DNA of 64,000 nt from an archaeon UBA543 (GTDB lineage Archaea > Undinarchaeota > Undinarchaeia > Undinarchaeales > UBA543), in contig DAPM01000017.1 in the NCBI GenBank assembly GCA_002502135.1, positions 5,548 through 69,547 on the forward strand, given 5' to 3'. Below the pieces are notes generated by a model. The model searched no databases. It was not told the origin of the DNA and worked only from the letters and a program-made list of their open reading frames with translations. The position numbers were made by a program, and so were the translations under genes. Of the stretch, positions 14,200 through 46,973 are shown piece by piece. Within the stretch, counting starts at the first letter, position 1, and the number at the start of each line of letters is the position of its first letter.

Positions 14200-14224
14200 T
14201 ACCTGTTTTCAACCAGTGTGCATG
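14180..14224 (+). promoter_or_regulatory. Putative archaeal TATA promoter for aglB copy 1; member of a duplicated 45-nt upstream sequence
   Basis: AAAAGCATAATCTTTATTAATACCTGTTTTCAACCAGTGTGCATG is near-identical to 16442..16486. The TTTATTAATA box is centred ~27 nt before the ATG, which implies a leaderless mRNA. Confidence 0.5.
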
Positions 14225-16435
14225 AATGAGGGGGGAGAGGATGATTCATCCTTTGATTTTTCAAAGTTAAAGAATCGATTCAAGCGCGACAAAGCGTCTG
14301 GCGACAGCATGGCTCTGGATCTTTCTGGCCCAGCCAAGTGGCTCAAAAACAACAAGAAGTTCCTAATTTACGGGCTTCTGGTTTTGCTTTTATTATTCTC
14401 CGGATGGCTTAGATTTATGCCAGAGGAAAAGTACACTGGAATTTATGAAAATTCACTTTCTGCCATGGATCCTTACTGGCATTACAGACATGCAAACGAC
14501 GTTTATGAGCATGGTTTTGTTGGTGACGAAGAAGTCTGCTATAATGAGGCAGCGAAACTAACAACCAAATATGATGGCTCGTGTCCACCCGGTTCTGAAC
14601 ACGCCTATTGGGATTTCATGCACGATGCCCCTGAAGGAAGTCGTATTGACCAGGAATTCTACCCATACTTTTCTGCATATTCTTACAAGTTTTTCGGTAG
14701 AGCATTTGCACCTAACTTGCTTGTCTGGCACCGCTGGACACCTGCGCTTTTCGGAATACTAGCAGTTCTTGGAATGTTCCTTCTGGCAAAACAATTATTC
14801 GGGCCTTACGCAGGACTTGCTGCAGGTTTCCTCTTTTCACTAGCGCCTTCATTTTTAACAAGAAGTGTTTCTGGATTTGCAGATACTGACGCAGTAATCG
14901 GGTTCTTCACTGTATTCTCGCTTTATTTCTTCATAAAAGCCTGGGATAACAACTCCATATTATATGCAATAATCGGTGGAGTCTGTCTTGGTTTGTTTGG
15001 TGTAGCCTGGCCAGGGTACGAGTTCATGCCACTTCTATTGATGGGCATGGCTGGATTTTTCTTTGTTTACAAAACCGTCCCTAAAATAATTGAAGGTTCC
15101 AGAAATTTCATAAAATTGGTTGTCGATCATTTGAAAGAGTATTGGAAAAAGTATGCAATTCTTGCGCTCTTACTATTGGTTACTCTAACTCTTGTAGGAT
15201 CTATCCGCGGTTTCAAGGAAGTTAATGTGTTTGAAGCAATAACTGCTTCTACAAGATTCAAAGTTGAAGATGTTGTTGACACTTCTGTTGAAGGAGAGGA
15301 CGTACTTGAGGTTTACAAAACCGTTGCTGAGATGAATCCTTCAAATCTCAGAAATATTGTTATTCGTCTTCATTACGCTCTTGTACTTCTTGCTGTTGGT
15401 TTCATAGCCTTACTCCCATTTGGATTATGGAAAAAGGTGAAAGATAATACACACCATATCGCCTTCCTCTTACTTTGGTTCGGTGCTACATTCTACATGT
15501 CTTTCAAGGCAATGAGGTTTATTGGAATGGCAGTATTCCCTGTTTGTATTTTTGCAGGAATCACTATTGCATTCTTGATTTCAAAAATCAAGCTGAAGCG
15601 CCCTGTTATTTCAGTTATATTTGCACTTATCATTTTCCTTTCAATCTTTGCAGTTCCTAATATTGCTATGGTCAAGGGGCAGGAATGGGGTGTATCCTAT
15701 TACGCCAGTGGAAGAGCAACTGCAGATCAAACTGGTCCATCTTTAGGACCTAATTGGTTTGACTTCCTCTACTGGGCCAGAGACTCGACTCCTGAAGGCT
15801 CAATATTCGCATCTTGGTGGGATCCTGGACATGCAATGACAGCTATCGGTGAGCGTCCTGCGGTTGCTGACGGAAGTCAGAACTCCTGGCATATCCACGA
15901 TCTCGCAGTCATCTTCACCACAACTGATGAAAATCTCGCAGTTGAACGGCTCAAAAAATATGATGTGTCTTACTTTTACACAAGTTCTGACCTGATTAAC
16001 AAGTATGGTGCAATCAGTTTCCTGTCTAATGGACAGGGTGAAAACTATCCGTTCCTCAATCTTGCTGAATCCAAGGAAGTTGCTTCAGGAAATGTTTTGA
16101 TATATCCTGTTGCTTCTCAGACAGACATAATCCTTGAATTAAGAGAAGATGGGATGAGTGCAGTTATATCTCAGAGATTCCAGAAACAGACAATAAAACG
16201 GATCTTCTACACTCAGAACGATCAGAGCTATGTTTCAGAATCAGATGACCCAGATGCATTCGAAGCAATGCTGTATCTCCAGCCTAATTTCCAGCAGGCC
16301 ATATTCCTTCCAATTCATCTGGAAAACAATATGCTCACCCAGCTTCACTTCTTCAATGGTCAGAATCTTGAGCACTTTGAGTATGTTGGCAATTACGGTG
16401 ATGAAATAAAAGTTTTCAAAGTCATTTATGACTAG
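14222..16435 (+). CDS. aglB: Oligosaccharyltransferase AglB/STT3 family, paralog 1
   Basis: Start placed at MNEGGEDD (leaderless, after the TATA). N-terminal polytopic membrane domain carries a DPYWHYR first-loop motif (cf. STT3 DPWFNYR), a T-x-x-E-like KTVAEM and a C-terminal WWDPGH (variant of the WWDYG motif). Confidence 0.75.
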   Translation: MNEGGEDDSSFDFSKLKNRFKRDKASGDSMALDLSGPAKWLKNNKKFLIYGLLVLLLLFSGWLRFMPEEKYTGIYENSLSAMDPYWHYRHANDVYEHGFVGDEEVCYNEAAKLTTKYDGSCPPGSEHAYWDFMHDAPEGSRIDQEFYPYFSAYSYKFFGRAFAPNLLVWHRWTPALFGILAVLGMFLLAKQLFGPYAGLAAGFLFSLAPSFLTRSVSGFADTDAVIGFFTVFSLYFFIKAWDNNSILYAIIGGVCLGLFGVAWPGYEFMPLLLMGMAGFFFVYKTVPKIIEGSRNFIKLVVDHLKEYWKKYAILALLLLVTLTLVGSIRGFKEVNVFEAITASTRFKVEDVVDTSVEGEDVLEVYKTVAEMNPSNLRNIVIRLHYALVLLAVGFIALLPFGLWKKVKDNTHHIAFLLLWFGATFYMSFKAMRFIGMAVFPVCIFAGITIAFLISKIKLKRPVISVIFALIIFLSIFAVPNIAMVKGQEWGVSYYASGRATADQTGPSLGPNWFDFLYWARDSTPEGSIFASWWDPGHAMTAIGERPAVADGSQNSWHIHDLAVIFTTTDENLAVERLKKYDVSYFYTSSDLINKYGAISFLSNGQGENYPFLNLAESKEVASGNVLIYPVASQTDIILELREDGMSAVISQRFQKQTIKRIFYTQNDQSYVSESDDPDAFEAMLYLQPNFQQAIFLPIHLENNMLTQLHFFNGQNLEHFEYVGNYGDEIKVFKVIYD

Positions 16436-16441
16436 AGCAGA

Positions 16442-16486
16442 AAAAGCATAATCTTTATTAATACCAGTTTTCAACCAATGTCTATG
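16442..16486 (+). promoter_or_regulatory. Putative TATA promoter for aglB copy 2 (duplicate of 14180..14224)
   Basis: AAAAGCATAATCTTTATTAATACCAGTTTTCAACCAATGTCTATG has the same TATA box and spacing. Confidence 0.5.
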
Positions 16487-18697
16487 GCAGATGGGGAAGA
16501 AGGTAAATCCTTTAAGTTTTCAGATATAGAGAGCCGGCTAAATGAAGGTCGCGATATCTCTAAAAGTATTACCTGGGTCAAGGAGAACAAAAAGACTGTA
16601 ATCTATCTTGTCTTGTTTCTGATATTACTATTTTCAACGGTTATCCGATTTGCTCCTGAACAACAGTATACAGGAATTTATGAGGACACTCTTGCTCTTG
16701 GGGACTCTTACTGGCATTACAGACACGCAAAAAACGTTTATGAGCATGGTTTTGTGGGTGATGAAGAGCTTTGCTATAACGAGCAAACCAAAGATACCCA
16801 GGCCTATGACGGTTCGTGCCCTGATGGATATGAACCAGCGTATTTTGACACACTGCACGATGCTCCATTTGGGGTTAAAATTGAGCAGGAATTCTATCCA
16901 TATTTCTCAGCTTATTCCTATAAATATTTCGGTAGAGCATTTGCACCTAACTTGCTTGTCTGGCACCGCTGGACACCTGCATTTTTCGGAATCCTATCAG
17001 TTCTTGGAATGTTCCTTCTCGTTAAACAATTATTCGGACCTTATGCCGGACTTGCTGCAGGTTTAATTTTTTCCCTTGCTCCCTATACTATAATCAAAAC
17101 TATTTCAGGAACAGCTGATACTGAAGCAGTTGTGACATTTTTCACTATATTTACTTTCTACTTTTTTGTAAAGGCGTGGAATCTTTCATCATTTAAATAT
17201 GCTGTAGCCGGAGGCATCACTCTCGGATTGTTCGGAATTGCCTGGGCATCCTATAGGTTCGCTCCTGTCCTCATGCTGGCTGTACTATTCTTCTTCTTTT
17301 TGCAGAAAGTTTATCCTAAATTCAAACAAGGGCGCAGGGATATCTTCAAATTAATAAAAGAGCACTTGACAGAGTACTGGAAAAAATATACTACATTCTT
17401 AATAATACTCGCCATTGGACTTCCTATTATCGGTTTTGTCCGCGGCTTCATTCATATTAATTTCTTCTATGCAATTACAACAGCTTTAAAATTAAAAACA
17501 ACAACAGCTGCGACAACAGTTGGAGGAGAAGTCATCCGTGATGTTTACTCTACAATCACTGAAATGAAGCAAATCGGACTTCATACTATTGTAACAAGGC
17601 TTCACCTTGTTCCAGCACTTCTCTGCGCATCTTTCTTTGCTCTTCTTCCATTTGGCTTGTGGAAAAAATACAAGGATAAAGCTCCCCAGGTTCTTTTTAT
17701 TTTAGTCTGGTTTGCAGCTGCAGTTTTTATGACTTTTAAGGCAACCCGATTTATTATAATGCTGATTCTTCCAGTTTCAGTACTTGCTGGAACAGCTGTT
17801 GGATTCGTGATCTCAAAGATGAGGCAAAAGAAGCTTGTTTTTTCGGTTGTAATTGCTGTTATCCTTCTCATAGTGCTTTTTGTTCTTCCAAACATTCCTG
17901 CTCAGCAAGGCCAGCCAGAACTTCCACAATCTGGTGTTTCACGAAATCGTTCATATTTCTCAACTGGAATTGAATTTACATCTCTTCCAAAACCTCTTTT
18001 AAACCAAAATTGGATAAATTTCTACAAATGGGCGCGTGAACAAACTCCAGAAGATGCAATCTTTGCTTCATGGTGGGATCATGGCCACCTAACTACCGCT
18101 GTTGCTGAACGGGCTATTGTAGCAGACGGAAGTCAAAACAATCTTCATATTCACGATCTTGCCGTTATTCTTACTACTAATGACGAAGATCTAGCTGTAG
18201 AGCGATTGAAAAAATACAATGTTTCATACTTCTTCACAAGTTCAGATATGATAAACAAGTATGGACTGATACTATATCTTGCTGATAAACAGGGCAGTGA
18301 GTATACATTAATTGTTAACCCTGAAATCCAAACCACCCCTCTCGGGCCGGTTTTAGTTTATACTATGGATGAAGCAAATAAAATCACTTTGAAACAGGAA
18401 GAAGATGAACGAATATCTGCTACATTAAGACAGGGGTATCAAACAACACCAATCAATCGAACTCTTTATTACACTAATAATTCTACGCCACTCATTTCTG
18501 AAAGCGAGGCAGAGGATGCGCTCGACATGCTGATTTATGTTCTTCCTCAATGGTTTGGAATCTTTCTTTTAAACCCTGAGATTGAAAAATCAATGCTCAC
18601 TCAACTCCACTTTTTCAATGCAGATTATCTTGAGCATTTCGAATTTATTGAAAGTTTTGGCGGAGAAATCAAGGTCTTTAAGGTAAATTATGACTAA
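16484..18697 (+). CDS. aglB: Oligosaccharyltransferase AglB/STT3 family, paralog 2
   Basis: Track start is 16478; the ATG homologous to copy 1 is 16484 (MADGEEG). Motifs: DSYWHYR, STITEM, WWDHGH. A stretch around 16929..16982 is nucleotide-identical to 14697..14750. Confidence 0.75.
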   Translation: MADGEEGKSFKFSDIESRLNEGRDISKSITWVKENKKTVIYLVLFLILLFSTVIRFAPEQQYTGIYEDTLALGDSYWHYRHAKNVYEHGFVGDEELCYNEQTKDTQAYDGSCPDGYEPAYFDTLHDAPFGVKIEQEFYPYFSAYSYKYFGRAFAPNLLVWHRWTPAFFGILSVLGMFLLVKQLFGPYAGLAAGLIFSLAPYTIIKTISGTADTEAVVTFFTIFTFYFFVKAWNLSSFKYAVAGGITLGLFGIAWASYRFAPVLMLAVLFFFFLQKVYPKFKQGRRDIFKLIKEHLTEYWKKYTTFLIILAIGLPIIGFVRGFIHINFFYAITTALKLKTTTAATTVGGEVIRDVYSTITEMKQIGLHTIVTRLHLVPALLCASFFALLPFGLWKKYKDKAPQVLFILVWFAAAVFMTFKATRFIIMLILPVSVLAGTAVGFVISKMRQKKLVFSVVIAVILLIVLFVLPNIPAQQGQPELPQSGVSRNRSYFSTGIEFTSLPKPLLNQNWINFYKWAREQTPEDAIFASWWDHGHLTTAVAERAIVADGSQNNLHIHDLAVILTTNDEDLAVERLKKYNVSYFFTSSDMINKYGLILYLADKQGSEYTLIVNPEIQTTPLGPVLVYTMDEANKITLKQEEDERISATLRQGYQTTPINRTLYYTNNSTPLISESEAEDALDMLIYVLPQWFGIFLLNPEIEKSMLTQLHFFNADYLEHFEFIESFGGEIKVFKVNYD

Positions 18698-19652
18698 AAC
18701 AAGATCAATTGTTTCAAAAGCACTCCCTATCTTTGGAGTCCTTTTGTTCGCATATATTCTTTACAGGGTTGGGCTTGGAAATATCTGGGGCAATATACGA
18801 GTTCTCAATCTAAAGTACTTTTCAATAGCAGTCGCACTGTTAATTCCTACAATTCTCATCAAAGCGTTCAAATGGAACCGAGTCCTGGCTGCCATGGGAT
18901 TCAAATATCCTCTTGGTGAGAGTTCAAAGTCTCTTACAATCTCTTATTTTATTGGCTCGTTAACCCCAGCCCGCCTTGGAGACTTTACAAGAGCACTTTA
19001 TTTGAAAAAATACAAGGTTTCACTTTCAAAAGCATTCTCCTCTGTTCTAATTGACAGATTATTTGATGTCGGAATCCTTGTCCTAATGGCTGTGTTCAGT
19101 GTAATAACACTTGTTCAGAGATTTTCTCTTGCGTTTTCAAGCATTTTACTCGTGCTCTTCATAGCGGTTTCATTTGGAGCTATTCTTCTACTTGTGCTCA
19201 GAAAAAAATTAATGCGAAAACTTCTCAAGCCATTCTTCTATATGTTGATTCCTGAGAAATTCCAGAAACAGCTCATAAATATCTTCGATGACTTTTATAC
19301 TAGCATTGCCGAATTCAGTCAGAATTTGTCAGTGATGTTCTCACTCTCGTTTTTGACATTAATTTCCTGGATAATCTCATTTATTTCAACATATTTTATT
19401 GCACTTTCACTTGGAATTGAAATCAAATTCTTTATACTTCTATTAATGCTCCCATTCTCAACACTAGTTGAAATGCTTCCAATCTCATTCTCAGGAGTCG
19501 GAACCAGAGATGCAGTATTTATCTTAATGTTCTCCCTCCTAGCAATACCAGCTGCAAAAGCAGTTTCATTCTCACTCATGATACTGATTTTCAATTATAT
19601 CCTATGTCTGGTCGGAGCCCTGCTCTGGGTCAAAAAACCATTCAAGGTCTAA
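18690..19652 (+). CDS. UPF0104 / lysylphosphatidylglycerol-synthase-TM-like (flippase-like) membrane protein
   Basis: 320-aa polytopic protein. The overall pattern resembles the flippase-like domain family often found beside GT2 genes. Confidence 0.5.
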   Translation: MTKTRSIVSKALPIFGVLLFAYILYRVGLGNIWGNIRVLNLKYFSIAVALLIPTILIKAFKWNRVLAAMGFKYPLGESSKSLTISYFIGSLTPARLGDFTRALYLKKYKVSLSKAFSSVLIDRLFDVGILVLMAVFSVITLVQRFSLAFSSILLVLFIAVSFGAILLLVLRKKLMRKLLKPFFYMLIPEKFQKQLINIFDDFYTSIAEFSQNLSVMFSLSFLTLISWIISFISTYFIALSLGIEIKFFILLLMLPFSTLVEMLPISFSGVGTRDAVFILMFSLLAIPAAKAVSFSLMILIFNYILCLVGALLWVKKPFKV

Positions 19653-19697
19653 ATTTCCATAAGTTATAAAAACCCAACAAATGAGTTCTAGAATACA

Positions 19698-22013
19698 ATG
19701 CAGATTGTAGTACTAGCTGGCGGATTGGCAACACGTATGAGACCGGTTACAGAGACCATTCCAAAAGCAATGATTCAGGTCAATGGCAAGCCTTTTCTGG
19801 AGCACCAGATTAAACTATTCCGAAGGAACGGAGTTACTGATATTATCTTGTGTGTTGGATACAGGGCTCAGCAGATAAAGGATTATTTCGGGGACGGCTC
19901 TAAATTCGATGTCAGAATCCGCTACAGTGACGAAGGAGACAACCTAAAAGGCACAGCAGGCGCTCTAAAGCAAGCAGAAGCGCTTCTGGATGACGAATTC
20001 CTTGTGATTTATGGAGATTCTTTTCTCACAACCAATTTTCAGGATGTAATTGATCATTTTAACAAGAATGACAAGTCAGCTCTTTGCACTGTTTACAAAA
20101 ACGATTTAGAATATCACAAAAACAATATGCAGGTTGCAGACGGGATGATTGTAAAGTACGACAAAACTGCTCAGACACCTGAAATGAAGCATGTTGACTA
20201 CGGACTTTCTATTCTCAGAAAATCAATATTGGATTCAATTCATCCTGATCGTGTAATCCAACTTGACGAAATATTCCAAACTCTAATCGCTAACAAGGGG
20301 TTACTTGCTTACGAAGTTTCTGACAGGTTTTATGAAATTGGTGAACCTGAAGGACTTAAACAGTTTGAGGATTATTTGAAGAGTAAAGACGAAACTACAA
20401 AAGCTTCAGGATGTGCTGGGTGTCCAAAATCAAGAATGTGCGGTACTGGGGTTCAGACTTCTTTTGAGCACAAGCGAGTTGAAACAATTGTTGGGCTTCC
20501 TGATAGTGTTGGAAAAGGGAAAAGTATCAAGAAGGTTCTGTTAATCTTTCCACACAGGATAAGTTTTTCCGGATACAAAGAGGATTTATCTCCTCCAATG
20601 GGCATGGCTTGTCTTGGTGCAGTTCTGGAAAACGCAGGATATGAAGTTAAAATTATTGATGCTGCAGCAGAGGATTTCAACCATTCTGAAAAAATTAATG
20701 ACAACATGGTACGGCTCGGAATAAGTATGGAAGACTTGAAACAGAGAATTACAGACTATCATCCTGATTTTGTTGGGGTGTCTTGTCTTTTCACAGCTCA
20801 GATCAAGACTGTTCTTGAAATCTGCAAGTCAATTAAGGAAGTTGATCCAAGTGTTCCTGTTGCAGTTGGTGGTTCTCATCCATCCGCTTTGCCTGAGCAG
20901 TCACTCAAATCACAATTCTTGGATTATGTAATCATTGGAGAAGGTGAATACACTTGCCGAGAGCTTCTCAACAAGCTGAAAACCAATGAGTCAGTTTCTG
21001 ATATTGACGGTTTTGCCTGGAAAGAAGACGGCAAGATTCACGTAAATCCTAAAACAAAATTTATAGAAGACATTAATGAGCTTCCTGAGCCAGCAAGGCA
21101 CTTACTGCCTATGAAAACATATTTTGACATTAATCTACCTCAGTGCGGAACCTCTCTCAAGAGACCGAACACTACAATTGCAACTTCAAGGGGGTGCACA
21201 GGCAACTGTGTGTTCTGTGCAACTACAAAACTCTGGGGAAGACGGTTCAGGCCGTTTGCAGTTGAGCGAGTTCTGGATGAAATGGAGACACTAATCAAGG
21301 ATTACGGAATTAAGGAGTTCCAATTTATTGACGACAACCTCACACTCAACAAAGAACGTGCAATGAAGATTTTCCAGGGAATGATTGACCGAAAATTCAA
21401 TATTGTCTGGAATACTCCGCAAGGTATAGCAATCTGGGCACTGGATAATGAGCTTCTGGACAAAATGAAAGAATCTGGGTGCTACGAAATCACAATTGCT
21501 GTTGAGAGCGGAGACCAGGATGTTCTTACTAACATAATCCACAAGCCAACAAACCTTTCAAAAGTTGAGGGAATTGTAAAACATGCAAAGAAACTCGGCT
21601 TGATTGTGAAAGGATACTTTGTTGTAGGATTCCCGGGTGAAAAGAAATGGCAGATGCAGAAAACTTTTGATATTGCAAAAGACTTGAAGTTTGATGCAGC
21701 TGGAATTTTCATTGCAACACCACTTCCAGGCACACAATTATACAAACAATGCAAGGAAAAAGGGTATCTTCGCCCTGGTTTTGATTTTGAACGTGTGAAT
21801 TATGGAGTTGGAAATATTATTACTCCAGATTTCAAGCCTGAAGAAATCGAGCAGATGGTTTCAGAAAATATTATCAAAATCAACATGGCTCTCTTGTACA
21901 GAAATCCTTGGAAGTTTGCAAAGAAGTATTTCCAGCTTGTTAAGCGAAATCCAAGAGTTATGTTTGATTATATGGGCTTCTTATGGAAGAAAGCAAGGAG
22001 GAAGAAATCATAA
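19698..22013 (+). CDS. Fusion protein: sugar-1-phosphate nucleotidyltransferase (N-terminal) plus cobalamin-binding radical SAM enzyme (C-terminal)
   Basis: 771 aa. The N-terminus MQIVVLAGGLATRMRPVTETIPKAMIQVNGKPFLEHQI is a G-x-G-x-R NTP-transferase fold (HddC/RmlA-like). The middle region is a B12-binding Rossmann (VLLIFPHRISFSGY...VIIGEGEY). Then comes ATSRGCTGNCVFCATT, the CxxxCxxC radical-SAM cluster. Confidence 0.8.
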   Translation: MQIVVLAGGLATRMRPVTETIPKAMIQVNGKPFLEHQIKLFRRNGVTDIILCVGYRAQQIKDYFGDGSKFDVRIRYSDEGDNLKGTAGALKQAEALLDDEFLVIYGDSFLTTNFQDVIDHFNKNDKSALCTVYKNDLEYHKNNMQVADGMIVKYDKTAQTPEMKHVDYGLSILRKSILDSIHPDRVIQLDEIFQTLIANKGLLAYEVSDRFYEIGEPEGLKQFEDYLKSKDETTKASGCAGCPKSRMCGTGVQTSFEHKRVETIVGLPDSVGKGKSIKKVLLIFPHRISFSGYKEDLSPPMGMACLGAVLENAGYEVKIIDAAAEDFNHSEKINDNMVRLGISMEDLKQRITDYHPDFVGVSCLFTAQIKTVLEICKSIKEVDPSVPVAVGGSHPSALPEQSLKSQFLDYVIIGEGEYTCRELLNKLKTNESVSDIDGFAWKEDGKIHVNPKTKFIEDINELPEPARHLLPMKTYFDINLPQCGTSLKRPNTTIATSRGCTGNCVFCATTKLWGRRFRPFAVERVLDEMETLIKDYGIKEFQFIDDNLTLNKERAMKIFQGMIDRKFNIVWNTPQGIAIWALDNELLDKMKESGCYEITIAVESGDQDVLTNIIHKPTNLSKVEGIVKHAKKLGLIVKGYFVVGFPGEKKWQMQKTFDIAKDLKFDAAGIFIATPLPGTQLYKQCKEKGYLRPGFDFERVNYGVGNIITPDFKPEEIEQMVSENIIKINMALLYRNPWKFAKKYFQLVKRNPRVMFDYMGFLWKKARRKKS

Positions 22014-22046
22014 AGCCTTTAAATTAAAATCATCGATTTAACTACA

Positions 22047-23027
22047 ATGATCATAACACAAACCCCACTCAGAATAACACTCGGCGGAGGAGGCACAGAT
22101 TTAGCTTCCTATTACTCAAAACACACAGGATTCCTGATAAGCGCTGCAATCGACAAGTATGTTTACATTAGTTTGCACAAGACTTTTGACAAGGATATTA
22201 CAGCCCACTATTCAAAACATGAGAAAGTTTCAAATGTTGCAGAATTACAGCACCCCATCATCATGGAAGCACTCAAACTCACAGGAATCGAGAGTGGTAT
22301 AGAGGTTTCCAGCATGGCAGACATCCCAGCAGGAACAGGATTAGGTTCTTCCGGATGTTTCACAGTCGGACTTCTGAATGCACTTCACACTTCTAAAAGA
22401 GAAAAATTATCTTCACACGAGCTAGCAGAAGAGGCTTGCAAAATCGAAATTGATCTTCTAAAAGAGCCAATTGGCAAGCAGGATCAGCACGCTTGTGCTA
22501 CAGGGGGCTTGACTGCATTCACTTTTGAGAAAGACGGCACTGTCAAAGCAGAGCCAATGAAAGTTTCCCAGAAAACAATGAATGCACTGGAAGACAATCT
22601 CTTACTTTTCTTTACAAATTACTCCAGAAGTGCTTCAGGTATTCTGAAAGAGCAGGATGACAAGAGCAAACAGGATGAAGATGAAATGATTCAGAACCTG
22701 CACAAAGTCAAAGAGCTTGGTGTTGAGAGCAAGCTTGCACTTGAATCTGGAAATCCTGACAAGCTTGGAGAATTAATGCACATTCACTGGGAGAACAAGA
22801 AAAAACGCTCAGGTTCAATGAGTAATCCTAAAATTGACAAATGGTACAACATTGCAATGGAGAATGGTGCTCTTGGCGGAAAACTGGTTGGCGCTGGCGG
22901 AGGCGGATTCCTGATGTTCTACGCAAATGACAAAGAGAAGCTTCGGGAAGCAATGCGCAAGGAAGGTTTGAGTGAGGTCAGGTTCAGATTCGACTTTGAT
23001 GGTTCTAAAGTATTGGTGAATGTATGA
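22047..23027 (+). CDS. GHMP-family sugar kinase, HddA-like (D-glycero-alpha-D-manno-heptose-7-phosphate kinase-like)
   Basis: 326 aa. MIITQTPLRITLGGGGTDL is the HddA-type N-terminus; the GHMP motif PAGTGLGSSG is present. Confidence 0.7.
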   Translation: MIITQTPLRITLGGGGTDLASYYSKHTGFLISAAIDKYVYISLHKTFDKDITAHYSKHEKVSNVAELQHPIIMEALKLTGIESGIEVSSMADIPAGTGLGSSGCFTVGLLNALHTSKREKLSSHELAEEACKIEIDLLKEPIGKQDQHACATGGLTAFTFEKDGTVKAEPMKVSQKTMNALEDNLLLFFTNYSRSASGILKEQDDKSKQDEDEMIQNLHKVKELGVESKLALESGNPDKLGELMHIHWENKKKRSGSMSNPKIDKWYNIAMENGALGGKLVGAGGGGFLMFYANDKEKLREAMRKEGLSEVRFRFDFDGSKVLVNV

Positions 23028-23788
23028 AGAGAGCAGTTGTAACTGGTGGAAGCGGTGGAATTGGAAAAATTATAGCAAAAGCACTGCACGATAACGGTTT
23101 TGAAATCATTCTTGTTGCTAGAAATGAAGAGAATTTGAAAAAAGCTGCACCAGAAATTGGAACTAATGTTAAAACATTCCCTTGCGATGTTACAAGCTAC
23201 ACTCATGTTGAATCTCTTTTCGCAAATTTTGATAAAATTGATGTTCTAGTAAATTCTGCAGGCATTCTTGGGCCAACTGAAACCCTTGCAGATTCTGACA
23301 TTGCTAATTGGAAGCGAGTACTTGAAGTTAATTTAATAGGAACAGTAAATTGCTGCAAAGCTGCTGGCCCCATTCTTGAAAAGTCAGAGCACGGGAAAAT
23401 TGTGAATATTGCAGGCGGTGGTGCTGCATATGCAAGACCACTTCATTCTGCTTATGCAACTTCAAAAGCAGGAGTAGTCAGGTTCACCGAAGAATTATCA
23501 TTGGAACTGAAGAACACAGATGTTAATGTTATTGCTCCTGGAGCGCACAACACAAAACTCTGGGAAGATGAGAAGGTTGATGAACCGCCAGAGCAGTGGG
23601 CAAACCCAGAAGATGTTGCAAAACTTGTGCTCTATCTTGCTTCTGAAAAATCTAATGGAATTACTGGCAAATTCATACACATCAAGGATGATTACGAAAG
23701 TTTCACTCCAGAGCTTTCAAAATCTGACAAATGCGCATTGAGGCGCGTTGACGACATATTGCTGGAGAAATTGAAAAATGAATTATAA
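23024..23788 (+). CDS. Short-chain dehydrogenase/reductase (SDR)
   Basis: 254 aa. Motifs TGGSGGIGK and YATSKAG (Y-x3-K). Confidence 0.8.
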   Translation: MKRAVVTGGSGGIGKIIAKALHDNGFEIILVARNEENLKKAAPEIGTNVKTFPCDVTSYTHVESLFANFDKIDVLVNSAGILGPTETLADSDIANWKRVLEVNLIGTVNCCKAAGPILEKSEHGKIVNIAGGGAAYARPLHSAYATSKAGVVRFTEELSLELKNTDVNVIAPGAHNTKLWEDEKVDEPPEQWANPEDVAKLVLYLASEKSNGITGKFIHIKDDYESFTPELSKSDKCALRRVDDILLEKLKNEL

Positions 23789-23816
23789 AGTTGAGGAGGT
23801 TGGAAAATACTAATAT

Positions 23817-23889
23817 CGGGGCACTGTGGAACCGCGGGGCCGGAGCGCCGAACGGCGCCCCTGCGCACCCGCGCCCCGGATCCACTGGA
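23817..23889. repeat. GC-rich structured intergenic element (copy A)
   Basis: A ~73-nt stretch of very high GC in a ~40% GC context. The core 23852..23879 (ACGGCGCCCCTGCGCACCCGCGCCCCGG) is the exact reverse complement of 60499..60526. It contains internal hairpins GCGCC-GAAC-GGCGC and GCGC-ACCC-GCGC. Confidence 0.6.
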
Positions 23890-23894
23890 CAAAA

Positions 23895-24860
23895 ATGAAA
23901 ACAGGAATTATTGGTTGCGGTCTAATCGGCTGGCGCAGAGCTAGTTTTCTAGGCGAGGATGAGCTTGTAATGTGCGCAGATGTCGATGAGGAGCGCGCCA
24001 AAAAGCTTGCAGAGGAATTTGATTGCGAATATTCTACTGATTCTACAAAAGTAACAAGTGATCCTCGAATTGAAGCTGTAATTATTTCGACTACAAACCA
24101 ATTCTTAGCAGAAATCGCTACCGATGCTGTCCGAAATAACAAACACTGCTTAATTGAAAAACCAGGAGCAAGAACTCTTGTTGAATATGAGCAGTTGATG
24201 AATGTTGCTAAAGAGCAAGGCGTTAAAGTGAAAATCGGTTACAATCACAGATTCCACCCATCCTTCTTGAAAGCTAGGGAGATTGTTGATTCTGGAGAAA
24301 TTGGTGAAGTAATGTATGTCAGGGGAAGGTATGGTCACGGCGGACGGCTTGGGTACGATAAAGAGTGGCGTGCAGATCCGCAAAAGTCTGGTGGTGGTGA
24401 GATGCTAGATCAGGGAACTCACTTAATTGACTTGGCTCGATGGTTCTGTGGCGAATTCACAGATGTTAAAGGCCATGTTGGCACTTTCTTCTGGGACATG
24501 CCAGTTGAGGATAATGGTTTTGCGCTCCTAAAAACAGATTCAGGCAAAGTTGCATGGCTGACTGCAAGCTGTACTCAGTGGAAGAATTTGTTCTGCTTTG
24601 AGATTCACTGCAAAACTGGATTGCTTGTAATTGACGGTCTTGGCAAGAGTTATGGCAAAGAAACACTCACTTTCCACAAAATGAAGCCTGAAATGGGTAT
24701 TCCTGATACTGAAACCTTCACTTGGGATGAAGATGATTCCTGGAAAAAGGAGTGGGTTGAGTTTAGAAGTGCGATTTCAGAGAATCGGGAGCCAATGAGC
24801 TCAATCTCAGATGCTTATGGAAACTTTAAGGTTGTTTCTGACCTCTACAAAACCCACTGA
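23895..24860 (+). CDS. Gfo/Idh/MocA-family NAD(P)-dependent oxidoreductase
   Basis: Track ORF starts at 23826, but its first 23 aa translate the GC-rich element. The real start is MKTGIIGCGLIGWRRA (Rossmann), followed by a C-terminal Gfo/Idh/MocA alpha/beta domain. Confidence 0.8.
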   Translation: MKTGIIGCGLIGWRRASFLGEDELVMCADVDEERAKKLAEEFDCEYSTDSTKVTSDPRIEAVIISTTNQFLAEIATDAVRNNKHCLIEKPGARTLVEYEQLMNVAKEQGVKVKIGYNHRFHPSFLKAREIVDSGEIGEVMYVRGRYGHGGRLGYDKEWRADPQKSGGGEMLDQGTHLIDLARWFCGEFTDVKGHVGTFFWDMPVEDNGFALLKTDSGKVAWLTASCTQWKNLFCFEIHCKTGLLVIDGLGKSYGKETLTFHKMKPEMGIPDTETFTWDEDDSWKKEWVEFRSAISENREPMSSISDAYGNFKVVSDLYKTH

Positions 24861-24904
24861 TTTTAACATACATAACCCTTAAAACCTCTTTTCCCGACCA
24901 TTTT

Positions 24905-25516
24905 TTGATAATAATGGATAATGTAGAGTATATCAACAAATACTTTTCCGAAATGAAAGATGTTATTGGAAACATCTCTGCGGAAGACACAGCTGGGGTA
25001 GTTAATGCGCTATTCACAGCCTGGAAAAACGGAAACCAAGTATTCCTAATTGGAAACGGTGGTTCTGCAAGCACAGCCACTCACATGGCATGCGACCTAA
25101 ACAAGTGCACAATTGTTGAGGGAAAACCTCGAATGAAAGCTCTTGCACTGGTTGACAATATTCCAGTAGTCAGCGCACTTACAAATGACGACGGCTGGGG
25201 TGAAATTTATGTTGAACAGCTTAAGAATTTCTTTAAAACAGGTGATGTTGTTATTGCTTTTAGTGTTCACGGCGGATCTGGAAGCGACAAGGCAGGTGCC
25301 TGGTCACAGAACCTTTTGAAAGGACTGCAGTATGCAAAAGATAATGGCGGAGTTGCAATTGGAATCTCCGGGTTTGACGGCGGAGCAATGAAGCAAATGG
25401 CAGACCACTGCATTGTAGTGCCTGTGGAATCAACACCACACACCGAATCACTGCATTTAGCAATCGAGCATCTCATTACAAACTGCTTGAAGGAGAAAAT
25501 AATCAACCAAGCATGA
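24905..25516 (+). CDS. gmhA: SIS-domain sedoheptulose-7-phosphate isomerase (GmhA-like), copy 1
   Basis: 203 aa. FLIGNGGSASTATHMACDL is the GmhA signature. Confidence 0.75.
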   Translation: MIIMDNVEYINKYFSEMKDVIGNISAEDTAGVVNALFTAWKNGNQVFLIGNGGSASTATHMACDLNKCTIVEGKPRMKALALVDNIPVVSALTNDDGWGEIYVEQLKNFFKTGDVVIAFSVHGGSGSDKAGAWSQNLLKGLQYAKDNGGVAIGISGFDGGAMKQMADHCIVVPVESTPHTESLHLAIEHLITNCLKEKIINQA

Positions 25517-26118
25517 AAAGAGCAGTTTTCCTTGACAGAGATGACACAATAAATAAGTCAATTTACATTTCAGATGAGAACAGGATTGAGAGTCCTCTAA
25601 AACCAGAGGAATTCGAACTGTTTTCAACAGCAGGAGACGCAATCAAAATCTTCAATGAACTTGGATTCCTGGTAATTGTGGTCACAAATCAGCCCGCAAT
25701 TGCAAAAGCAAAAACAACAGTTGAACTAGTTGATCAAATTCACGAAAAAATGAAAGCAGATCTTGAAGCTCAAGGCACTCAGGTGGATGAGGTTTACTAT
25801 TGCCCTCACTCAGAACCTGGAAAAGGAAAAATCCCTGAGTTTACAAAAATCTGTGACTGCAGAAAGCCTGGACAAGGTATGTTTTTGCAGGCAAAAGAGA
25901 GATTCGATATTGACATGGAAAATTCATATATGATAGGTGATAGCTGGCGAGATATTAAAGTTGGAAATTCGCTAGGCTGCACTACATTTAAAGTCGATCA
26001 TTCAATGATCGAAACTCATAGTGATTTAATCACAGAACAGCTAAATAATCCAGATCACAAGGTTAAGGATTTATATGAGGCTGCATTACTAATCAAAAAC
26101 TTAGAGGAGAAAAAATAA
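25513..26118 (+). CDS. gmhB: D-glycero-D-manno-heptose-1,7-bisphosphate phosphatase (HAD, GmhB-like)
   Basis: 201 aa. FLDRDDTIN (DxDxT), VVTNQ, and CPHSEPGKGKIPEFTKICDCRKP (GmhB Zn-binding Cys/His insert). Confidence 0.75.
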   Translation: MKRAVFLDRDDTINKSIYISDENRIESPLKPEEFELFSTAGDAIKIFNELGFLVIVVTNQPAIAKAKTTVELVDQIHEKMKADLEAQGTQVDEVYYCPHSEPGKGKIPEFTKICDCRKPGQGMFLQAKERFDIDMENSYMIGDSWRDIKVGNSLGCTTFKVDHSMIETHSDLITEQLNNPDHKVKDLYEAALLIKNLEEKK

Positions 26119-26119
26119 A

Positions 26120-26773
26120 ATGGACATTTATATAGACACTGCAAATCTTGAAGAAATAAAAAACGCTGTTGATATGGGCATCATAGATGGGTGCACAACC
26201 AATCCAGCAATTGTTGCCAAAGAGGGATGTGAATTTGAAAGCAGGATGAAGGAAATCCTTGCACTTGTCAAAGGCCCTGTCAGCATTGAAGTTACTACAA
26301 TTGATGTTGACACAATGGTTGAAGAAGCTGTAAAGTATTCAAAATGGGGCGACAATGTTGTTGTCAAAATCCCTATGGATGCAAACGGGCTTCGCGCAAC
26401 AAAAATCCTAACGGAAAAAGGCATCAAAACTAATGTGACCTGTTGCATGAGCTCAACTCAGGCAGTTCTGGCTGCAAAAGCAGGAGCAACATACGTTTCT
26501 CTGTTCTACGGCAGAATCGCTGACATGGGTTATGATGCAATGTACGAACTTGCAGATGCTGTAAATATTTTTGAACATTCTGGATTTGAATCCAAGATTA
26601 TTGCAGGAAGCCTAAGATCTGTTGCTGATGTTATGACAGCAATCCGCGCAGGAGTGCACATAGTTACTGTTCCGCCTGCATCTCTTAACAAAATGTACGT
26701 TCACCCAAGAACAAAAGAAACTATCCAGGAATTCCTGGACTTCTGGGCTGACTACAAGAAAAAACATAAGTGA
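26120..26773 (+). CDS. Transaldolase / fructose-6-phosphate aldolase (short TalC/FSA type)
   Basis: 217 aa. Begins MDIYIDTANLEEIK with the Schiff-base-lysine region VVVKIP. Confidence 0.8.
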   Translation: MDIYIDTANLEEIKNAVDMGIIDGCTTNPAIVAKEGCEFESRMKEILALVKGPVSIEVTTIDVDTMVEEAVKYSKWGDNVVVKIPMDANGLRATKILTEKGIKTNVTCCMSSTQAVLAAKAGATYVSLFYGRIADMGYDAMYELADAVNIFEHSGFESKIIAGSLRSVADVMTAIRAGVHIVTVPPASLNKMYVHPRTKETIQEFLDFWADYKKKHK

Positions 26774-27510
26774 GAATGGACGGAGACCACGACATAACAC
26801 TGTTTTTCCCTGTTTATAATGAAGAGGGGAACATACGTTCAGTTATCACTACTGCAAGCAATGTTCTGAAAAAGATTTCACGGAATTATGAAGTTCTGCT
26901 TGTGCTTTATGCTGGTTCTACTGATAAAAGTGAGGAAATCATCCGAGAAATGGCTAAAGAGGATCCGCACATCAGGCTGGTAATTCAGCCTACAAGCGAT
27001 CCTGGAGTCGGCAGAGCTTACAGAATTGGTTTTGAGCAGGCAAAGTATCCGATTATTGCTTATTCTGATTCTGACAACCAGTTCAACTTAAATGAGCTTG
27101 TGAAATTCCTCCCATACCTTGATGAGTATGACATTATTGCAGGTTACAAATTGAAACGACAGGATCCACTTCCAAGAATAATCACTTCTTGGGGCTACAA
27201 CACACTAGTGAGAACTCTTTTCAGGATAAACACAATGGATGTTAATACTGCTTTCAGGGTTGTGAAGAAACCAGTTCTGGATAAAGTCAAATTAACTTCA
27301 AGACTTGGAACAGTCACAACCGAACTTCTTGTAAAAGCAAAAAAGAACGGGTTCAGCATAAAACAGATAGGCGTAACCCACTTTCCAAGAACAGAAGGCA
27401 AGCCTTTATACGAAGTTACAAGCGGAATGCTGTCACCAAAAACAATAATCAATGTTTCAAAGGAAATTGTAAGGCTTTGGTGGAGTGTTAATGTGAGGAA
27501 ACAATACTAA
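26770..27510 (+). CDS. Family-2 glycosyltransferase (Dol-P-sugar-synthase-like, soluble)
   Basis: 246 aa. LFFPVYNEEGNI...YSDSDNQ (DxD). Confidence 0.75.
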   Translation: MRMDGDHDITLFFPVYNEEGNIRSVITTASNVLKKISRNYEVLLVLYAGSTDKSEEIIREMAKEDPHIRLVIQPTSDPGVGRAYRIGFEQAKYPIIAYSDSDNQFNLNELVKFLPYLDEYDIIAGYKLKRQDPLPRIITSWGYNTLVRTLFRINTMDVNTAFRVVKKPVLDKVKLTSRLGTVTTELLVKAKKNGFSIKQIGVTHFPRTEGKPLYEVTSGMLSPKTIINVSKEIVRLWWSVNVRKQY

Positions 27511-28481: not shown

Positions 28482-28483
28482 TC

Positions 28484-44174: not shown

Positions 44175-44207
44175 CTCTTTTAACCTAAAATCAGGACGTT
44201 CAATTCA

Positions 44208-46972: not shown

Positions 46973-46973
46973 T

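Follow-up and report, generated by a model that had tools for sequence, protein, structure and literature searches.

The fusion gene

The window, a stretch of 64,000 nucleotides of DNA from an archaeon of the Undinarchaeota (UBA543), carries at positions 19698–22013 (+ strand) one unbroken open reading frame that starts with ATG and encodes 771 amino acids. Pfam and NCBIfam divide it into a nucleotidyltransferase (NTase), a linker, a B12-binding domain and a radical SAM core. The Pfam matches are NTP_transferase (PF00483; residues 4–135, E 7e-22), with NTP_transf_3 (PF12804) also matching; B12-binding (PF02310; residues 299–423, E 3e-26, 91.9 bits); and Radical_SAM (PF04055; residues 496–658, E 6e-20). 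The architecture given in the initial annotation, a single 771-residue ORF in which an NTase is joined to a B12-binding domain and to a radical SAM core with the CxxxCxxC motif, is thus confirmed by the ORF call and by these matches, which include all of the Pfam families that it had proposed as a check.

Unfused forms of either half are far commoner than the fusion, and it might be supposed that the fusion reflects a frameshift or an assembly error between two separate genes, which the initial annotation had named as grounds for refutation. However, the same fusion is found in four independent assemblies of Undinarchaeota-like archaea, with identities of 92% (P0001, locus L007), 79% (P0002, L001–L002) and 77% (P0003), and the linker is conserved in all of these homologues. 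Because four or more independent assemblies keep the continuous ORF and its linker motif, with identities of 77–92%, the fusion is real, and the chance that it is an artefact is negligible.

The operon around the fusion

All of the genes described here are on the + strand. Upstream are a transketolase (9928–11880), expected to take part in the pentose phosphate supply of sedoheptulose-7-phosphate, and two tandem AglB/STT3 oligosaccharyltransferase paralogues (14153–16435 and 16478–18697), which are conserved upstream in L001 and L007. A transketolase also adjoins the related cassettes in L001, L008 and L096. Immediately before the fusion is an LPG_synthase_TM flippase-like membrane protein (18690–19652; PF03706, 157.8 bits; TIGR00374 above its cutoff), which is kept in L001, L002 and L007 and is also present in L009.

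Directly downstream is a GHMP kinase (22047–23027), a candidate heptose-7-phosphate 1-kinase whose best match is HddA (NF049969, 176.6 bits against a cutoff of 600) and which is 85% identical to its orthologue in L001. It is followed by a classical short-chain dehydrogenase/reductase (SDR; 23024–23788), a GFO/IDH/MocA-family sugar oxidoreductase (23826–24860), a SIS-domain isomerase (24905–25516) whose best match is GmhA (TIGR00441, 87.8 bits, below cutoff), a GmhB-like HAD-IIIA phosphatase (25513–26118; PRK08942, 138.7 bits, cutoff 178) and a fructose-6-phosphate aldolase/transaldolase of the TalC/FSA type (26120–26773; TIGR00875, 226.9 bits, cutoff 246), the presumed supplier of sedoheptulose-7-phosphate. 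The initial annotation had placed the fusion directly upstream of HddA-like kinase, GmhA and GmhB genes; this holds for the kinase, but the SDR and GFO/IDH/MocA genes precede the GmhA- and GmhB-like genes.

The remainder of the operon consists of a small GT2 (26770–27510; PF00535), which is a candidate polyprenyl/dolichyl-phosphate sugar synthase (best NCBIfam matches Dol-P hexose transferase and ArnC, at about 50 bits), an NAD-dependent epimerase/4,6-dehydratase-family enzyme (27510–28481), a class I SAM methyltransferase (28484–29425), a PMT_2 GT-C glycosyltransferase (29422–30993) that resembles AglS and ArnT, which use lipid-phosphate sugar donors, and a Wzx/Polysacc_synt-type flippase (30990–32489). 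Relatives in L002, L009, L018 and L098 also have PMT_2 nearby. The order STT3, LPG_synthase_TM, fusion, GHMP, SDR, GFO, SIS, HAD, TAL, GT2, epimerase is shared by four assemblies. The methyltransferase is variable among relatives, being only 23% identical to the gene in the same position in L002. A conserved methyltransferase partnership, or a Rosetta-stone link by way of the radical SAM–methyltransferase fusions P0036 and P0043, was considered and rejected because the methyltransferases are not orthologous between loci. Homology between a SPASM radical SAM protein of the window (33060–34091) and the one beside the L097 cassette was likewise rejected, the match being only generic (E 0.004). 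The GT9 of the window has an ADP-heptose-type route of its own.

The N-terminal nucleotidyltransferase

The sugar-1-phosphate NTase domain comprises residues 1–228 (19698–20381, + strand), as defined by Pfam, NCBIfam, alignment and the context of its stand-alone homologues. The NCBIfam NTase models span residues 1–224, and mannose-1-phosphate guanylyltransferases align end to end with residues 1–235. The PF00483 score is 78.6 bits, against a cutoff of 21.2. The motifs LAGGLATRMRP..PK, GTAG, YGDS and FYEIGEPE are common to 120 stand-alone homologues, and the domain has what is expected of a sugar-1-phosphate NTase: the GGxGTR-type NTP loop, the PK, GD and (D/E)xG motifs, and a full-length fold of about 225 residues.

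The score against the HddC model (NF049965) is 106.4 bits and does not reach the cutoff of 300. The genomic context is that of HddC: homologues of GmhA, HddA (GHMP) and GmhB adjoin, this is the only NTase of the pathway, and there is no other HddC-like enzyme among the NTases of the window. Further, all three of the unfused homologues sampled (53–55% identity) occur in cassettes of epimerase, NTase, GHMP, SIS, HAD and transaldolase, without a B12 radical SAM; the epimerase of the operon matches the one adjoining the NTase in these cassettes (L096–L098) at 47–55% identity. L096 additionally has an SDR, a GFO (55% identical to that of the window), a GT2 and a split transketolase; its HAD phosphatase is fused to the transaldolase, and a ribulose-phosphate 3-epimerase lies beside it. 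Judged from its sequence and context, the N-domain is the HddC-equivalent NTase of a widespread heptose cassette of NTase, GHMP kinase, SIS, HAD and transaldolase genes, in which a radical SAM gene is normally absent. The cassettes that lack a B12 radical SAM show that the radical step does not belong to the core of the pathway and is an optional extra. The N-domain has the fold, motifs and pathway position of HddC, beside HddA-, GmhA- and GmhB-like genes; it differs in belonging to a divergent subfamily, in which FYE(I/V)G replaces the usual W-x-D-(I/V)-G, and in its fusion to a radical SAM enzyme, and its nucleotide specificity is not established.

The sugar might instead be a higher-carbon one such as an octose, made by a logic like that of lincomycin, for which we take the relevant parallel to be LmbR (transaldolase), LmbN (isomerase), LmbP (GHMP kinase), LmbK (phosphatase), LmbO (NTase), LmbM (epimerase) and LmbL/LmbZ (GFO type). 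The cassette always has its own TalC/FSA-type transaldolase, phosphatase-fused in L096, and includes GFO/IDH/MocA and epimerase genes, while the needs of GT9 are met by the separate ADP-heptose-type route. We nevertheless consider an octose distinctly improbable: the best matches of the kinase, isomerase and phosphatase are HddA, GmhA and GmhB; the transketolase beside the cassettes, with the ribulose-phosphate 3-epimerase in L096, fits a supply of sedoheptulose-7-phosphate in a reduced metabolism; and Campylobacter is known to have ADP- and GDP-heptose routes side by side.

The linker

Alignment of the fusion homologues defines a Cys-rich linker of 47 residues (229–275; 20382–20522, + strand). 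Only 34% of its columns are invariant among the fusions, yet every Cys and His is kept, in the form C239-x2-C242-x5-C248 and T254-S-F-E-H258 (nucleotides 20412–20471). This motif is absent from the stand-alone NTases and stand-alone radical SAM proteins with which it was compared. It may be a metal-binding site, and the conserved CxxCx5C..FEH could serve as an additional metal or redox site through which the two active sites are coupled. The linker and N-domain are predicted at low confidence by AlphaFold2. An alignment mixing NTase-only and radical-SAM-only sequences was misaligned by MAFFT and was left out; the model is therefore silent on the N-domain, the linker and the contacts between domains.

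The radical SAM half

The C-terminal half consists of a Rossmann-type cobalamin-binding domain (residues 276–440; 20523–21017, + strand), identified by PF02310 and by fold matches and predicted with a pLDDT above 90, and a radical SAM core with a C-terminal helical domain (residues 441–771; 21018–22013, + strand), identified by PF04055, its invariant cysteines and its fold. The CxxxCxxC motif is C500/C504/C507 (nucleotides 21195–21218) and is invariant in 47 homologues. Foldseek matches the predicted structure to TsrM, TokK, OxsB, CysS, MgmA and AprD4 with E values of 1e-19 to 1e-23, at sequence identities to the solved structures of only 14–20%. With a Rossmann-type cobalamin-binding domain before the core, and CxxxCxxC within a partial TIM barrel, the predicted architecture is that of class B. 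The binding and use of cobalamin are inferred from indirect evidence only; AprD4, a top structural match, reportedly works without it. A BtuCDF-like importer adjoins the homologue in L017, an indirect hint of cobalamin use.

The best family model is SD_1168 (NF038361), with 304.6 bits (E 1e-90) over profile positions 61–541 of 560, short of its cutoff of 575. Scores against this model are flat across the clades of the superfamily (273–364 bits), and because all clades score alike the match is not specific to phosphonates. HpnJ (TIGR03471) is second best with 187.8 bits against a cutoff of 577.6, and PhpK gives 130.5 bits against 600. Every NCBIfam family model, including HddC for the N-domain, thus falls below its own cutoff. 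There is no characterised close relative, and C-methylation can only be inferred; it is not established because the same structural class and similarity neighbourhood hold the non-methylating enzymes HpnJ, OxsB and AprD4. In a published review, a similarity network unites Fom3, MoeK5 and HpnJ in a single tight group, with SD1168 in the main cluster that surrounds it; the same review gives the physiological substrate of SD1168 as itself unknown.

It is therefore necessary to consider that the enzyme acts on an NDP-heptose by some other radical chemistry, such as ring contraction or the formation of a carbocycle (compare HpnJ and OxsB), dehydration (compare AprD4), epimerisation or C–C bond formation. 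HpnJ is consistently the second-best model in the relatives (170–205 bits), as it is for the fusion (188 bits); AprD4 and OxsB rank high among the structural matches; the neighbouring GT2 and LPG_synthase_TM genes recall hpnI and hpnL; and HpnJ shares the network group of Fom3 and MoeK5. Against this, the SD_1168 methyltransferase family leads by more than 100 bits, and the majority of characterised class B radical SAM enzymes are methylases. The similarity to HpnL is 34 bits, compared to 111 bits to a generic flippase-like model, and no HpnK-like deacetylase is present among the annotated operon genes. We regard non-methylating chemistry as unlikely. A closer analogy to hpnI-J-K-L was dropped: HpnJ and HpnL are weak matches, and no hopanoid genes are found among the annotated genes of the window.

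Radical SAM clades and the phosphonate module

A neighbor-joining tree assigns the radical SAM half to a glycan-associated clade (bootstrap 96); a distinct sister clade (bootstrap 97) occurs in PEP mutase phosphonate clusters. Neighbours within the glycan clade include GT9 (L017, L018) and methyltransferase–GT2 pairs (L008, L010). The Chloroflexi locus L009 has the order NTase, radical SAM, methyltransferase, PMT_2, together with an LPG flippase and a GT2; its unfused NTase, which resembles glucose-1-phosphate cytidylyltransferase (227.6 bits), is encoded by a gene that runs into the beginning of the radical SAM gene. Another clade occurs in an NDP-deoxyaminosugar operon (L092), with radical SAM, RmlA-type NTase, isomerase, 4,6-dehydratase and DegT genes.

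The initial annotation had suggested, as an alternative substrate, a CMP-phosphonate from a phosphonate module 20 kb downstream. The module is real: at about 40.7–45.8 kb there are a PEP mutase–NTase fusion, a split phosphonopyruvate decarboxylase, an Fe-ADH, an NTase and a CDP-alcohol phosphotransferase. This NTase (NT239) and the CDP-alcohol phosphotransferase resemble an IPCT/DIPPS-type pair, not HddC. A Fom3/PhpK-like methyltransferase acting on a cytidylylated phosphonate would account for the presence in the window of Fom1-, Fom2- and FomC-like genes with no dedicated radical SAM in the module, for sister-clade homologues (37–45% identity) inside PepM clusters, and for a best family model that is a P-methyltransferase family. 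However, the fusion lies outside the bootstrap-97 clade and in a heptose operon, which is also the operon conserved in L001 and L002; SD_1168 scores are similar in all clades; and the N-domain is the NTase of the heptose cassette, not of the NT239 or PepM-fused type. The phosphonate pairing exists elsewhere: P0265 is an independent fusion of an NT239-like NTase to a radical SAM of the phosphonate clade, and it lies beside a PepM–NTase gene. In these two independent fusions, each type of NTase goes with a different radical SAM clade. There is thus very little chance that the substrate is a phosphonate. The same substrate had been suggested by the Nanoarchaeota locus L014, and was disfavoured by the tree, the flat SD_1168 scores and P0265.

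NTase and radical SAM genes overlap in L009, L092 and L014, are 2–12 bp apart in L048, L084 and L089, and are 79 bp apart in L066, these loci representing three clades. Across the superfamily, an NTase lies within two genes in 11 of 100 loci, compared to 15 of 258 controls, an approximately two-fold enrichment (one-sided p = 0.074). This adjacency is too weak to support a superfamily-wide rule of a "nucleotide handle", which we rejected, and we make the claim for particular clades only.

Among stand-alone proteins, those most similar to the radical SAM half (58–62% identity; L003–L006, L012, L016, L019) have a thioredoxin-like gene and an MFS transporter, or small ORFs, nearby; no glycan genes are found near them, and these surroundings give no clue to function. 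Their lack of an adjacent NTase is compatible with a radical SAM domain that acts later, on a dolichyl-phosphate-linked sugar or the assembled glycan, with the fusion serving only co-expression or co-localisation. GT2, LPG_synthase_TM and PMT_2 recur around clade members, and MoeK5, from the Fom3/HpnJ similarity group, acts on a lipid-linked sugar. The two independent fusions with their clade-specific NTases, the overlapping or closely spaced genes in three clades, and the precedent of Fom1/Fom3, where the nucleotide is the recognition handle, all count against late action, and the fusion showed no obvious transmembrane segment, although there was no formal test. We consider it improbable. The suggestion in the initial annotation that the radical SAM enzyme takes as its substrate the conjugate produced by its own N-terminal domain is supported by the comparative evidence, in particular the L009 overlap and the parallel pairing in P0265.

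A proposed pathway

Our preferred interpretation, for which we judge the chances to be about even, is that the fusion is a bifunctional enzyme in the nucleotide-heptose branch of an archaeal surface-glycan pathway. NDP-heptose, also the favoured substrate of the initial annotation, is supported by the occurrence of N-domain homologues in heptose cassettes and by the glycan context of the radical SAM clade; the identities of both sugar and nucleotide are inferred. Transketolase and the FSA-type transaldolase would make sedoheptulose-7-phosphate, which the GmhA-like isomerase, HddA-like GHMP kinase and GmhB-like phosphatase would convert to heptose-1-phosphate. The N-terminal domain would combine this with an NTP to give NDP-heptose (GDP being assumed by analogy to HddC), and the tethered cobalamin-dependent radical SAM domain would then modify it; action at the NDP-sugar stage is again an inference. 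In the likeliest chemistry, which is that of Fom3, the 5'-deoxyadenosyl radical would remove hydrogen from an unactivated hydroxyl-bearing carbon, and methylcobalamin, regenerated by a second SAM, would then donate its methyl group.

The SDR, GFO/IDH/MocA and epimerase/dehydratase enzymes may tailor the sugar further. On an inferred lipid-carrier route, the small GT2 would load it onto dolichyl phosphate, the flippase-like protein would move the carrier outward, and the PMT_2 GT-C would add the sugar to the glycan that AglB attaches to protein. Heptose is not in itself new in archaeal glycans, D-glycero-D-galacto-heptose being present in Thermoplasma acidophilum. Literature searches linking heptose to cobalamin (B12) radical SAM enzymes found nothing relevant.

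Comparison with known systems

Most cobalamin-dependent radical SAM enzymes are orphans: their substrates are unknown and assays are difficult. Where such an enzyme is naturally fused to the one that supplies its substrate, the fusion is a strong and directly testable clue. Here it makes a nucleotide-activated heptose the probable substrate for one of the clades, and P0265 points to nucleotidylated phosphonates in the sister clade. We propose, more tentatively and with less expectation of being right, that this is the first cobalamin radical SAM enzyme to act on a primary NDP-sugar, C-methylating an NDP-heptose for a DPANN N-glycan (for example at C6 or C7, to give an 8-deoxy-octose-type or branched heptose), and that, together with P0265, it reveals a nucleotide handle provided by a partner NTase in sizeable clades of the SD_1168-like class B radical SAM enzymes, of which uncultivated bacteria and archaea have thousands of orphan members. 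If so, DPANN archaeal surfaces carry a new modified heptose, probably C-methylated, and a single polypeptide supplied with NTP, sugar-1-phosphate and SAM offers a system for studying class B radical SAM chemistry.

The proposed lipid-carrier route has a precedent in AglD/AglR/AglS of Haloferax volcanii, in which dolichyl phosphate receives a single sugar from a GT2 and is flipped, after which a GT-C transfers the sugar to the N-linked glycan on the outside of the cell; the operon similarly has GT2, flippase-like and PMT_2 genes beside AglB. In Haloferax the sugar is mannose. The flippase-like protein here is of the LPG_synthase_TM family, and the role of such a route here is inferred from gene content only. 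GenK, GenD1 and MoeK5 likewise methylate unactivated carbons of sugars by cobalamin-dependent radical chemistry, but their substrates are the aminoglycoside pseudo-oligosaccharides or lipid-linked sugars of antibiotic pathways rather than a primary NDP-sugar destined for a surface glycan, and they have no NTase fusion. HpnJ (with HpnI/HpnL) and OxsB (with OxsA) are B12-domain radical SAM enzymes with sugar or nucleotide substrates, nucleotides in the case of OxsB; they catalyse ring contractions rather than methylations, and the locus has no hopanoid context.

A close parallel is Fom1 and Fom3 of fosfomycin biosynthesis: once the NTase has formed a nucleotide conjugate, a cobalamin radical SAM enzyme, also of class B, methylates an unactivated hydroxyl-bearing carbon of it, the substrate of Fom3 being cytidylyl-2-hydroxyethylphosphonate (cytidylyl-2-HEP); the sister clade in PepM/Ppd/Fe-ADH clusters belongs to the same superfamily as the fusion. 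The Fom1 NTase is fused to PEP mutase, whereas ours is fused to the radical SAM enzyme itself and is of the sugar-1-phosphate, heptose-cassette type, with an NDP-sugar as the inferred substrate. If our interpretation is correct, it would extend Fom3-type logic from antibiotic biosynthesis to the primary building blocks of cell-surface glycans.

Architecture of the fusion protein

The open reading frame at 19698–22013 (+) starts with ATG and runs uninterrupted for 771 codons. Pfam analysis identified NTP_transferase at residues 4–135 (E 7e-22; NTP_transf_3 is also matched), B12-binding at residues 299–423 (E 3e-26) and Radical_SAM at residues 496–658 (E 6e-20), and thus matched all the profiles proposed as a check in the initial annotation (PF00483/PF12804, B12-binding and Radical_SAM). 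Sugar-1-phosphate nucleotidyltransferase (NTase) models in NCBIfam cover residues 1–224, and residues 1–235 align with mannose-1-phosphate guanylyltransferases in the PDB, with which they share the motifs LAGGLATRMRP..PK, GTAG, YGDS and FYEIGEPE. The radical SAM cysteines C500, C504 and C507 are unchanged across 47 homologues. The window contains no other B12 radical SAM gene.

The same fusion recurs in other assemblies, with 92% identity in a Candidatus Undinarchaeota MAG contig (L007), 79% in two JGI metagenome contigs (L001 and L002), and 77% in P0003, an NCBI partial protein labelled “archaeon”. We therefore rule out an assembly artefact or a sequencing frameshift between two genes, which would have refuted the original description of a single NTase/B12/radical SAM protein; that description is borne out, and it is virtually certain that the fusion is real. 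In an exhaustive search, fusions of this type form a single cluster at 50% identity, represented by P0003.

The 47-residue linker (residues 229–275) has diverged more rapidly than the domains (34% of columns invariant, as against 59–86%). Within it, C239-x2-C242-x5-C248 and TSFEH (254–258) are retained in all four fusion proteins (residues 239–258, window 20412–20471), and this motif was found neither in 120 stand-alone NTase homologues nor in the N-termini of stand-alone radical SAM homologues. It may be a Zn or Fe–S site; the structural model is uninformative for the linker.

Family and predicted structure of the radical SAM half

Of 1.84 billion cluster representatives, 10,227 matched the 771-residue protein at E ≤ 1e-30 in the exhaustive search, whichever half of the fusion was matched. 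The best 150 all match the radical SAM half and are almost exclusively stand-alone proteins of about 500 residues from uncultivated bacteria and DPANN archaea. The top curated model is the B12 radical SAM methyltransferase family SD_1168, at 304.6 bits, which does not meet its cutoff of 575, followed by HpnJ (188 bits), BchE (158 bits) and PhpK (130 bits). Representatives of every subclade score 273–364 bits with SD_1168, and the match is therefore not phosphonate-specific. A 2022 review groups Fom3, MoeK5 and HpnJ in a sequence-similarity network, and gives the physiological substrate of SD1168 as unknown. We note that the nearest characterised relative was judged from model scores and this one review only; no Fom3, MoeK5 or GenK sequences were compared.

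The AlphaFold2 model has pLDDT above 90 for residues about 275–765 and is reliable for the B12/radical SAM part only, the N-terminal domain and linker not being reliably modelled. Every solved B12-domain radical SAM structure (AprD4, TsrM, MgmA/QCMT, CysS, OxsB and TokK) is matched, although with only 14–20% identity. On the basis of this model, the class B architecture is confirmed but the chemistry is not.

The operon and surrounding genes

The fusion is one of 15 closely packed genes on the same strand (14153–32489), which run in the order: two AglB/STT3 oligosaccharyltransferases, an LPG_synthase_TM flippase-like protein, the fusion, an HddA-like GHMP kinase, an SDR, a GFO/IDH/MocA oxidoreductase, a GmhA-like SIS isomerase, a GmhB-like HAD phosphatase, an FSA/TalC transaldolase, a small GT2 (top matches Dol-P-hexose transferase and ArnC), an epimerase/4,6-dehydratase, a class I methyltransferase, a PMT_2 GT-C glycosyltransferase and a Wzx-like flippase. 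The initial annotation placed the fusion directly upstream of the heptose genes; this holds for the kinase, but the GmhA- and GmhB-like genes come only after the SDR and GFO/IDH/MocA genes. Between STT3 and the epimerase, gene order is kept in L001, L002 and L007, with 58–94% identity. A transketolase gene lies upstream of the array.

A TylF-like gene (macrocin O-methyltransferase family; 13438–14199, +) is directly upstream of the first AglB gene. The triad of GT2, flippase-like and GT-C proteins is present in two copies in the glycan island (about 13–60 kb), the second being part of a GT2 (−)/epimerase/PMT_2/LPG_synthase_TM set at 52914–57679. Within the island there is also a radical SAM/SPASM protein (33060–34091), for which the top model is a tungsten-cofactor oxidoreductase maturase (148 bits, below cutoff), and whose gene overlaps a DUF4910/DUF2172/M28-like gene (34006–35373). 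A NeuB-family synthase and a CMP-nonulosonate (CTP_transf_3) synthetase are encoded at 37019–38790 (−), which points to a sialic-acid-like sugar pathway in the island as well.

The N-terminal domain

A search with residues 1–262 found thousands of stand-alone proteins of about 234 residues, the best with 50–63% identity. Three of these, chosen for their long contigs, were sampled, and all three sit in the same type of cassette: in locus L098, Epimerase, NTase, GHMP, SIS, HAD, TAL/FSA and PMT_2; in L097, SPASM radical SAM, Epimerase, NTase, GHMP, SIS, HAD and TAL/FSA; and in L096, Epimerase, SDR, GFO/IDH/MocA, GHMP, SIS, fused HAD+TAL, GT2 and NTase, adjoined by a split transketolase and ribulose-phosphate epimerase. 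The cassette proteins have 32–66% identity to their window counterparts. None of the three loci contains a B12 radical SAM gene, and the SPASM protein beside the L097 cassette has no specific relationship to the one in the window. In L096 (4883–6214) the GmhB-like phosphatase and TAL/FSA transaldolase form one 443-residue protein, which underlines that the transaldolase is an integral component of the cassette.

Judged by the cassette setting of these homologous sequences, the N-terminal domain is very probably the cassette NTase, which takes the place of HddC in a widespread cassette of heptose type. In Undinarchaeota, the operon is such a cassette with a radical SAM domain joined to its NTase. 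Against the HddC equivalog model the domain scores 106.4 bits, short of the cutoff of 300, and we therefore call it HddC-like in action, and not a member of the HddC family.

Comparative genomics of the radical SAM family

Window proteins were mapped onto 95 collected loci, and relationships were assessed by a neighbour-joining tree only (116 sequences, 100 bootstraps). A phosphonate clade (bootstrap 97) takes in every homologue located in a PEP mutase cluster (L014/L015, L045, L048, L055, L060, L078, L084 and L089), often with a gene 2–12 bp downstream resembling NT239, the 239-residue NTase of the window's phosphonate module, or with a CTP_transf_like gene overlapping its start. The fusion falls in a separate clade (bootstrap 96), of which the following members were informative. 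The Chloroflexi locus L009 (49% identity) contains an NTase, epimerase, LPG-flippase, GT2 and further genes, then UDP-Glc/GDP-Man dehydrogenase, NTase, radical SAM, MTase and PMT_2; the NTase gene next to the radical SAM gene overlaps its start, and its product is glucose-1-P cytidylyltransferase-like (227.6 bits). Two Iainarchaeota loci, L008 and L010 (51–52%), have radical SAM, MTase and GT2 with a split transketolase adjacent, L018 (50%) has GT4, PMT_2, GT9 and radical SAM, and L017 (53%) has a BtuCDF-like ABC importer, radical SAM and GT9. Another clade is embedded in NDP-sugar operons, for example L092 (radical SAM, RmlA-type NTase, 3,5-epimerase/ketoisomerase, 4,6-dehydratase and DegT aminotransferase). 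L028 (44%) combines an ADP-heptose operon (GmhB, HldD-like, HldE, GmhA) with a directly adjoining glycan cluster, in which three B12 radical SAMs are encoded.

Next to the clade that holds the fusion, a sister group (bootstrap 93) is made up of tandem paralogue arrays, whose contexts are uninformative. As many as eight paralogues encoding B12 radical SAM proteins lie in tandem, as on a deltaproteobacterial chromosome (L013, 8556–21224), and arrays of the same superfamily occur in metagenome contigs too (L020, L029, L038, L040, L043 and L075).

No glycan genes were found near the closest stand-alone radical SAM relatives (58–62% identity), which cuts against a simple picture. Moreover, over the superfamily as a whole, the presence of an NTase gene no more than two genes away is enriched only two-fold (11/100 vs 15/258, p = 0.074). 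Taken together, these results imply that the NTase partnership is limited to certain clades. The homologues in L003–L006 and L012 (58–60%) have either a thioredoxin-like gene on one side and an MFS transporter on the other (Vulcanimicrobiota), or a very small ORF on each side (63 and 39 residues).

A second fusion and the choice of substrate

The exhaustive search uncovered a second NTase–B12 radical SAM fusion, P0265, of 728 residues (L099, 1944–4130). Its N-terminal domain is NT239-like (33% identity to the window NT239), and the radical SAM half falls within the phosphonate clade (58% identity to L078; 40–42% to L060, L089 and L048). Flanking genes encode an HD-domain protein, a further radical SAM paralogue and a PEP mutase–NTase fusion; the last of these genes adjoins P0265, and its product has 33% identity over 542 residues to that of 44208–45830. 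It follows from the two proteins that NTase–radical SAM fusion arose independently at least twice. Each pairs an NTase type and a radical SAM clade that are also found as separate neighbouring genes, and two such matched pairs, known only as sequences, strongly support the proposal that the radical enzyme would act on the nucleotide conjugate made by its own NTase. P0265 would be well suited as an experimental parallel to the window enzyme.

The alternative substrate offered in the initial annotation was a CMP-phosphonate from a downstream module. The module does exist, as a PEP mutase fused to an NTase (44208–45830, the PEP mutase part above the TIGR02320 cutoff) with its partner genes: a split phosphonopyruvate decarboxylase (43153–44174), Fe-ADH (42094–43047), NT239 (41378–42097) and a CDP-alcohol phosphotransferase (40683–41381). 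NT239 and the phosphotransferase look like a pair of IPCT/DIPPS type, not like HddC. The region 38842–45830 as a whole is a Fom1/Fom2/FomC-like module, including a Glyphos_transf-like protein and lacking a radical SAM of its own, and suggests a 2-hydroxyethylphosphonate-type head group transferred to glycan or lipid. A CMP-phosphonate is nevertheless disfavoured, because it is the heptose-type NTase to which the window radical SAM is joined, the phosphonate-type one being separate.

A second heptose route, of ADP-heptose type, is found beside the PEP mutase gene (45827–48888, −). It comprises a GmhA-like SIS protein (48346–48888, −), a PfkB kinase (47429–48349, −) and a CTP_transf_like adenylyltransferase (46974–47432, −) that are the halves of a split HldE, and a GT9 heptosyltransferase (45827–46972, −). 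Such an ADP-heptose/GT9 set of bacterial-LPS style, beside a PEP mutase gene, is unusual in a DPANN archaeon.

Proposed pathway

We propose that transketolase and FSA would supply sedoheptulose-7-P, which the GmhA-, HddA- and GmhB-like enzymes would turn into heptose-1-P, to be converted to NDP-heptose by the N-terminal domain; the GmhA/HddA/GmhB/HddC logic of NDP-heptose synthesis is established. The tethered class B radical SAM domain would then modify NDP-heptose, most probably by Fom3-type radical C-methylation at an unactivated hydroxyl-bearing carbon, the heptose C6/C7 side chain being an attractive analogue of 2-hydroxyethylphosphonate; both suggestions are inference only. The sugar would be tailored by the SDR, GFO and epimerase enzymes, which occur in cassettes lacking a radical SAM as well. 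Finally, GT2 would charge dolichyl phosphate, a flippase-like protein would carry the sugar across the membrane and PMT_2 would join it to the glycan, which AglB would attach to protein. Since equivalent cassettes occur without radical SAM, the radical step is optional tailoring, which is consistent with a decoration, a methyl group for instance. We have good confidence that the radical SAM acts in the heptose-cassette sugar pathway. That its chemistry is methylation is reasonably favoured, and that it acts at the NDP-sugar stage modestly so; for the pathway in full, the chances are about even.

Comparison with known systems

The closest functional analogue of the fusion is Fom1(CyTase)/Fom3, and the closest curated family to its radical SAM half is SD_1168, below cutoff. 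With HddC the N-terminal domain shares a working role without reaching equivalog level, and its nucleotide specificity is undetermined. Haloferax AglD, AglR and AglS provide a precedent for dolichyl-phosphate sugar loading, flipping and transfer to glycan, and heptose in an archaeal N-glycan has a precedent in Thermoplasma. The heptose modifications known from Campylobacter rely on dehydrogenases, epimerases, reductases and dehydratases, and we found no report in the literature of a cobalamin-dependent radical SAM enzyme that acts on heptose or is fused to an NTase. What is new here is the fusion partner and, by inference, the substrate class for a class B radical SAM enzyme.
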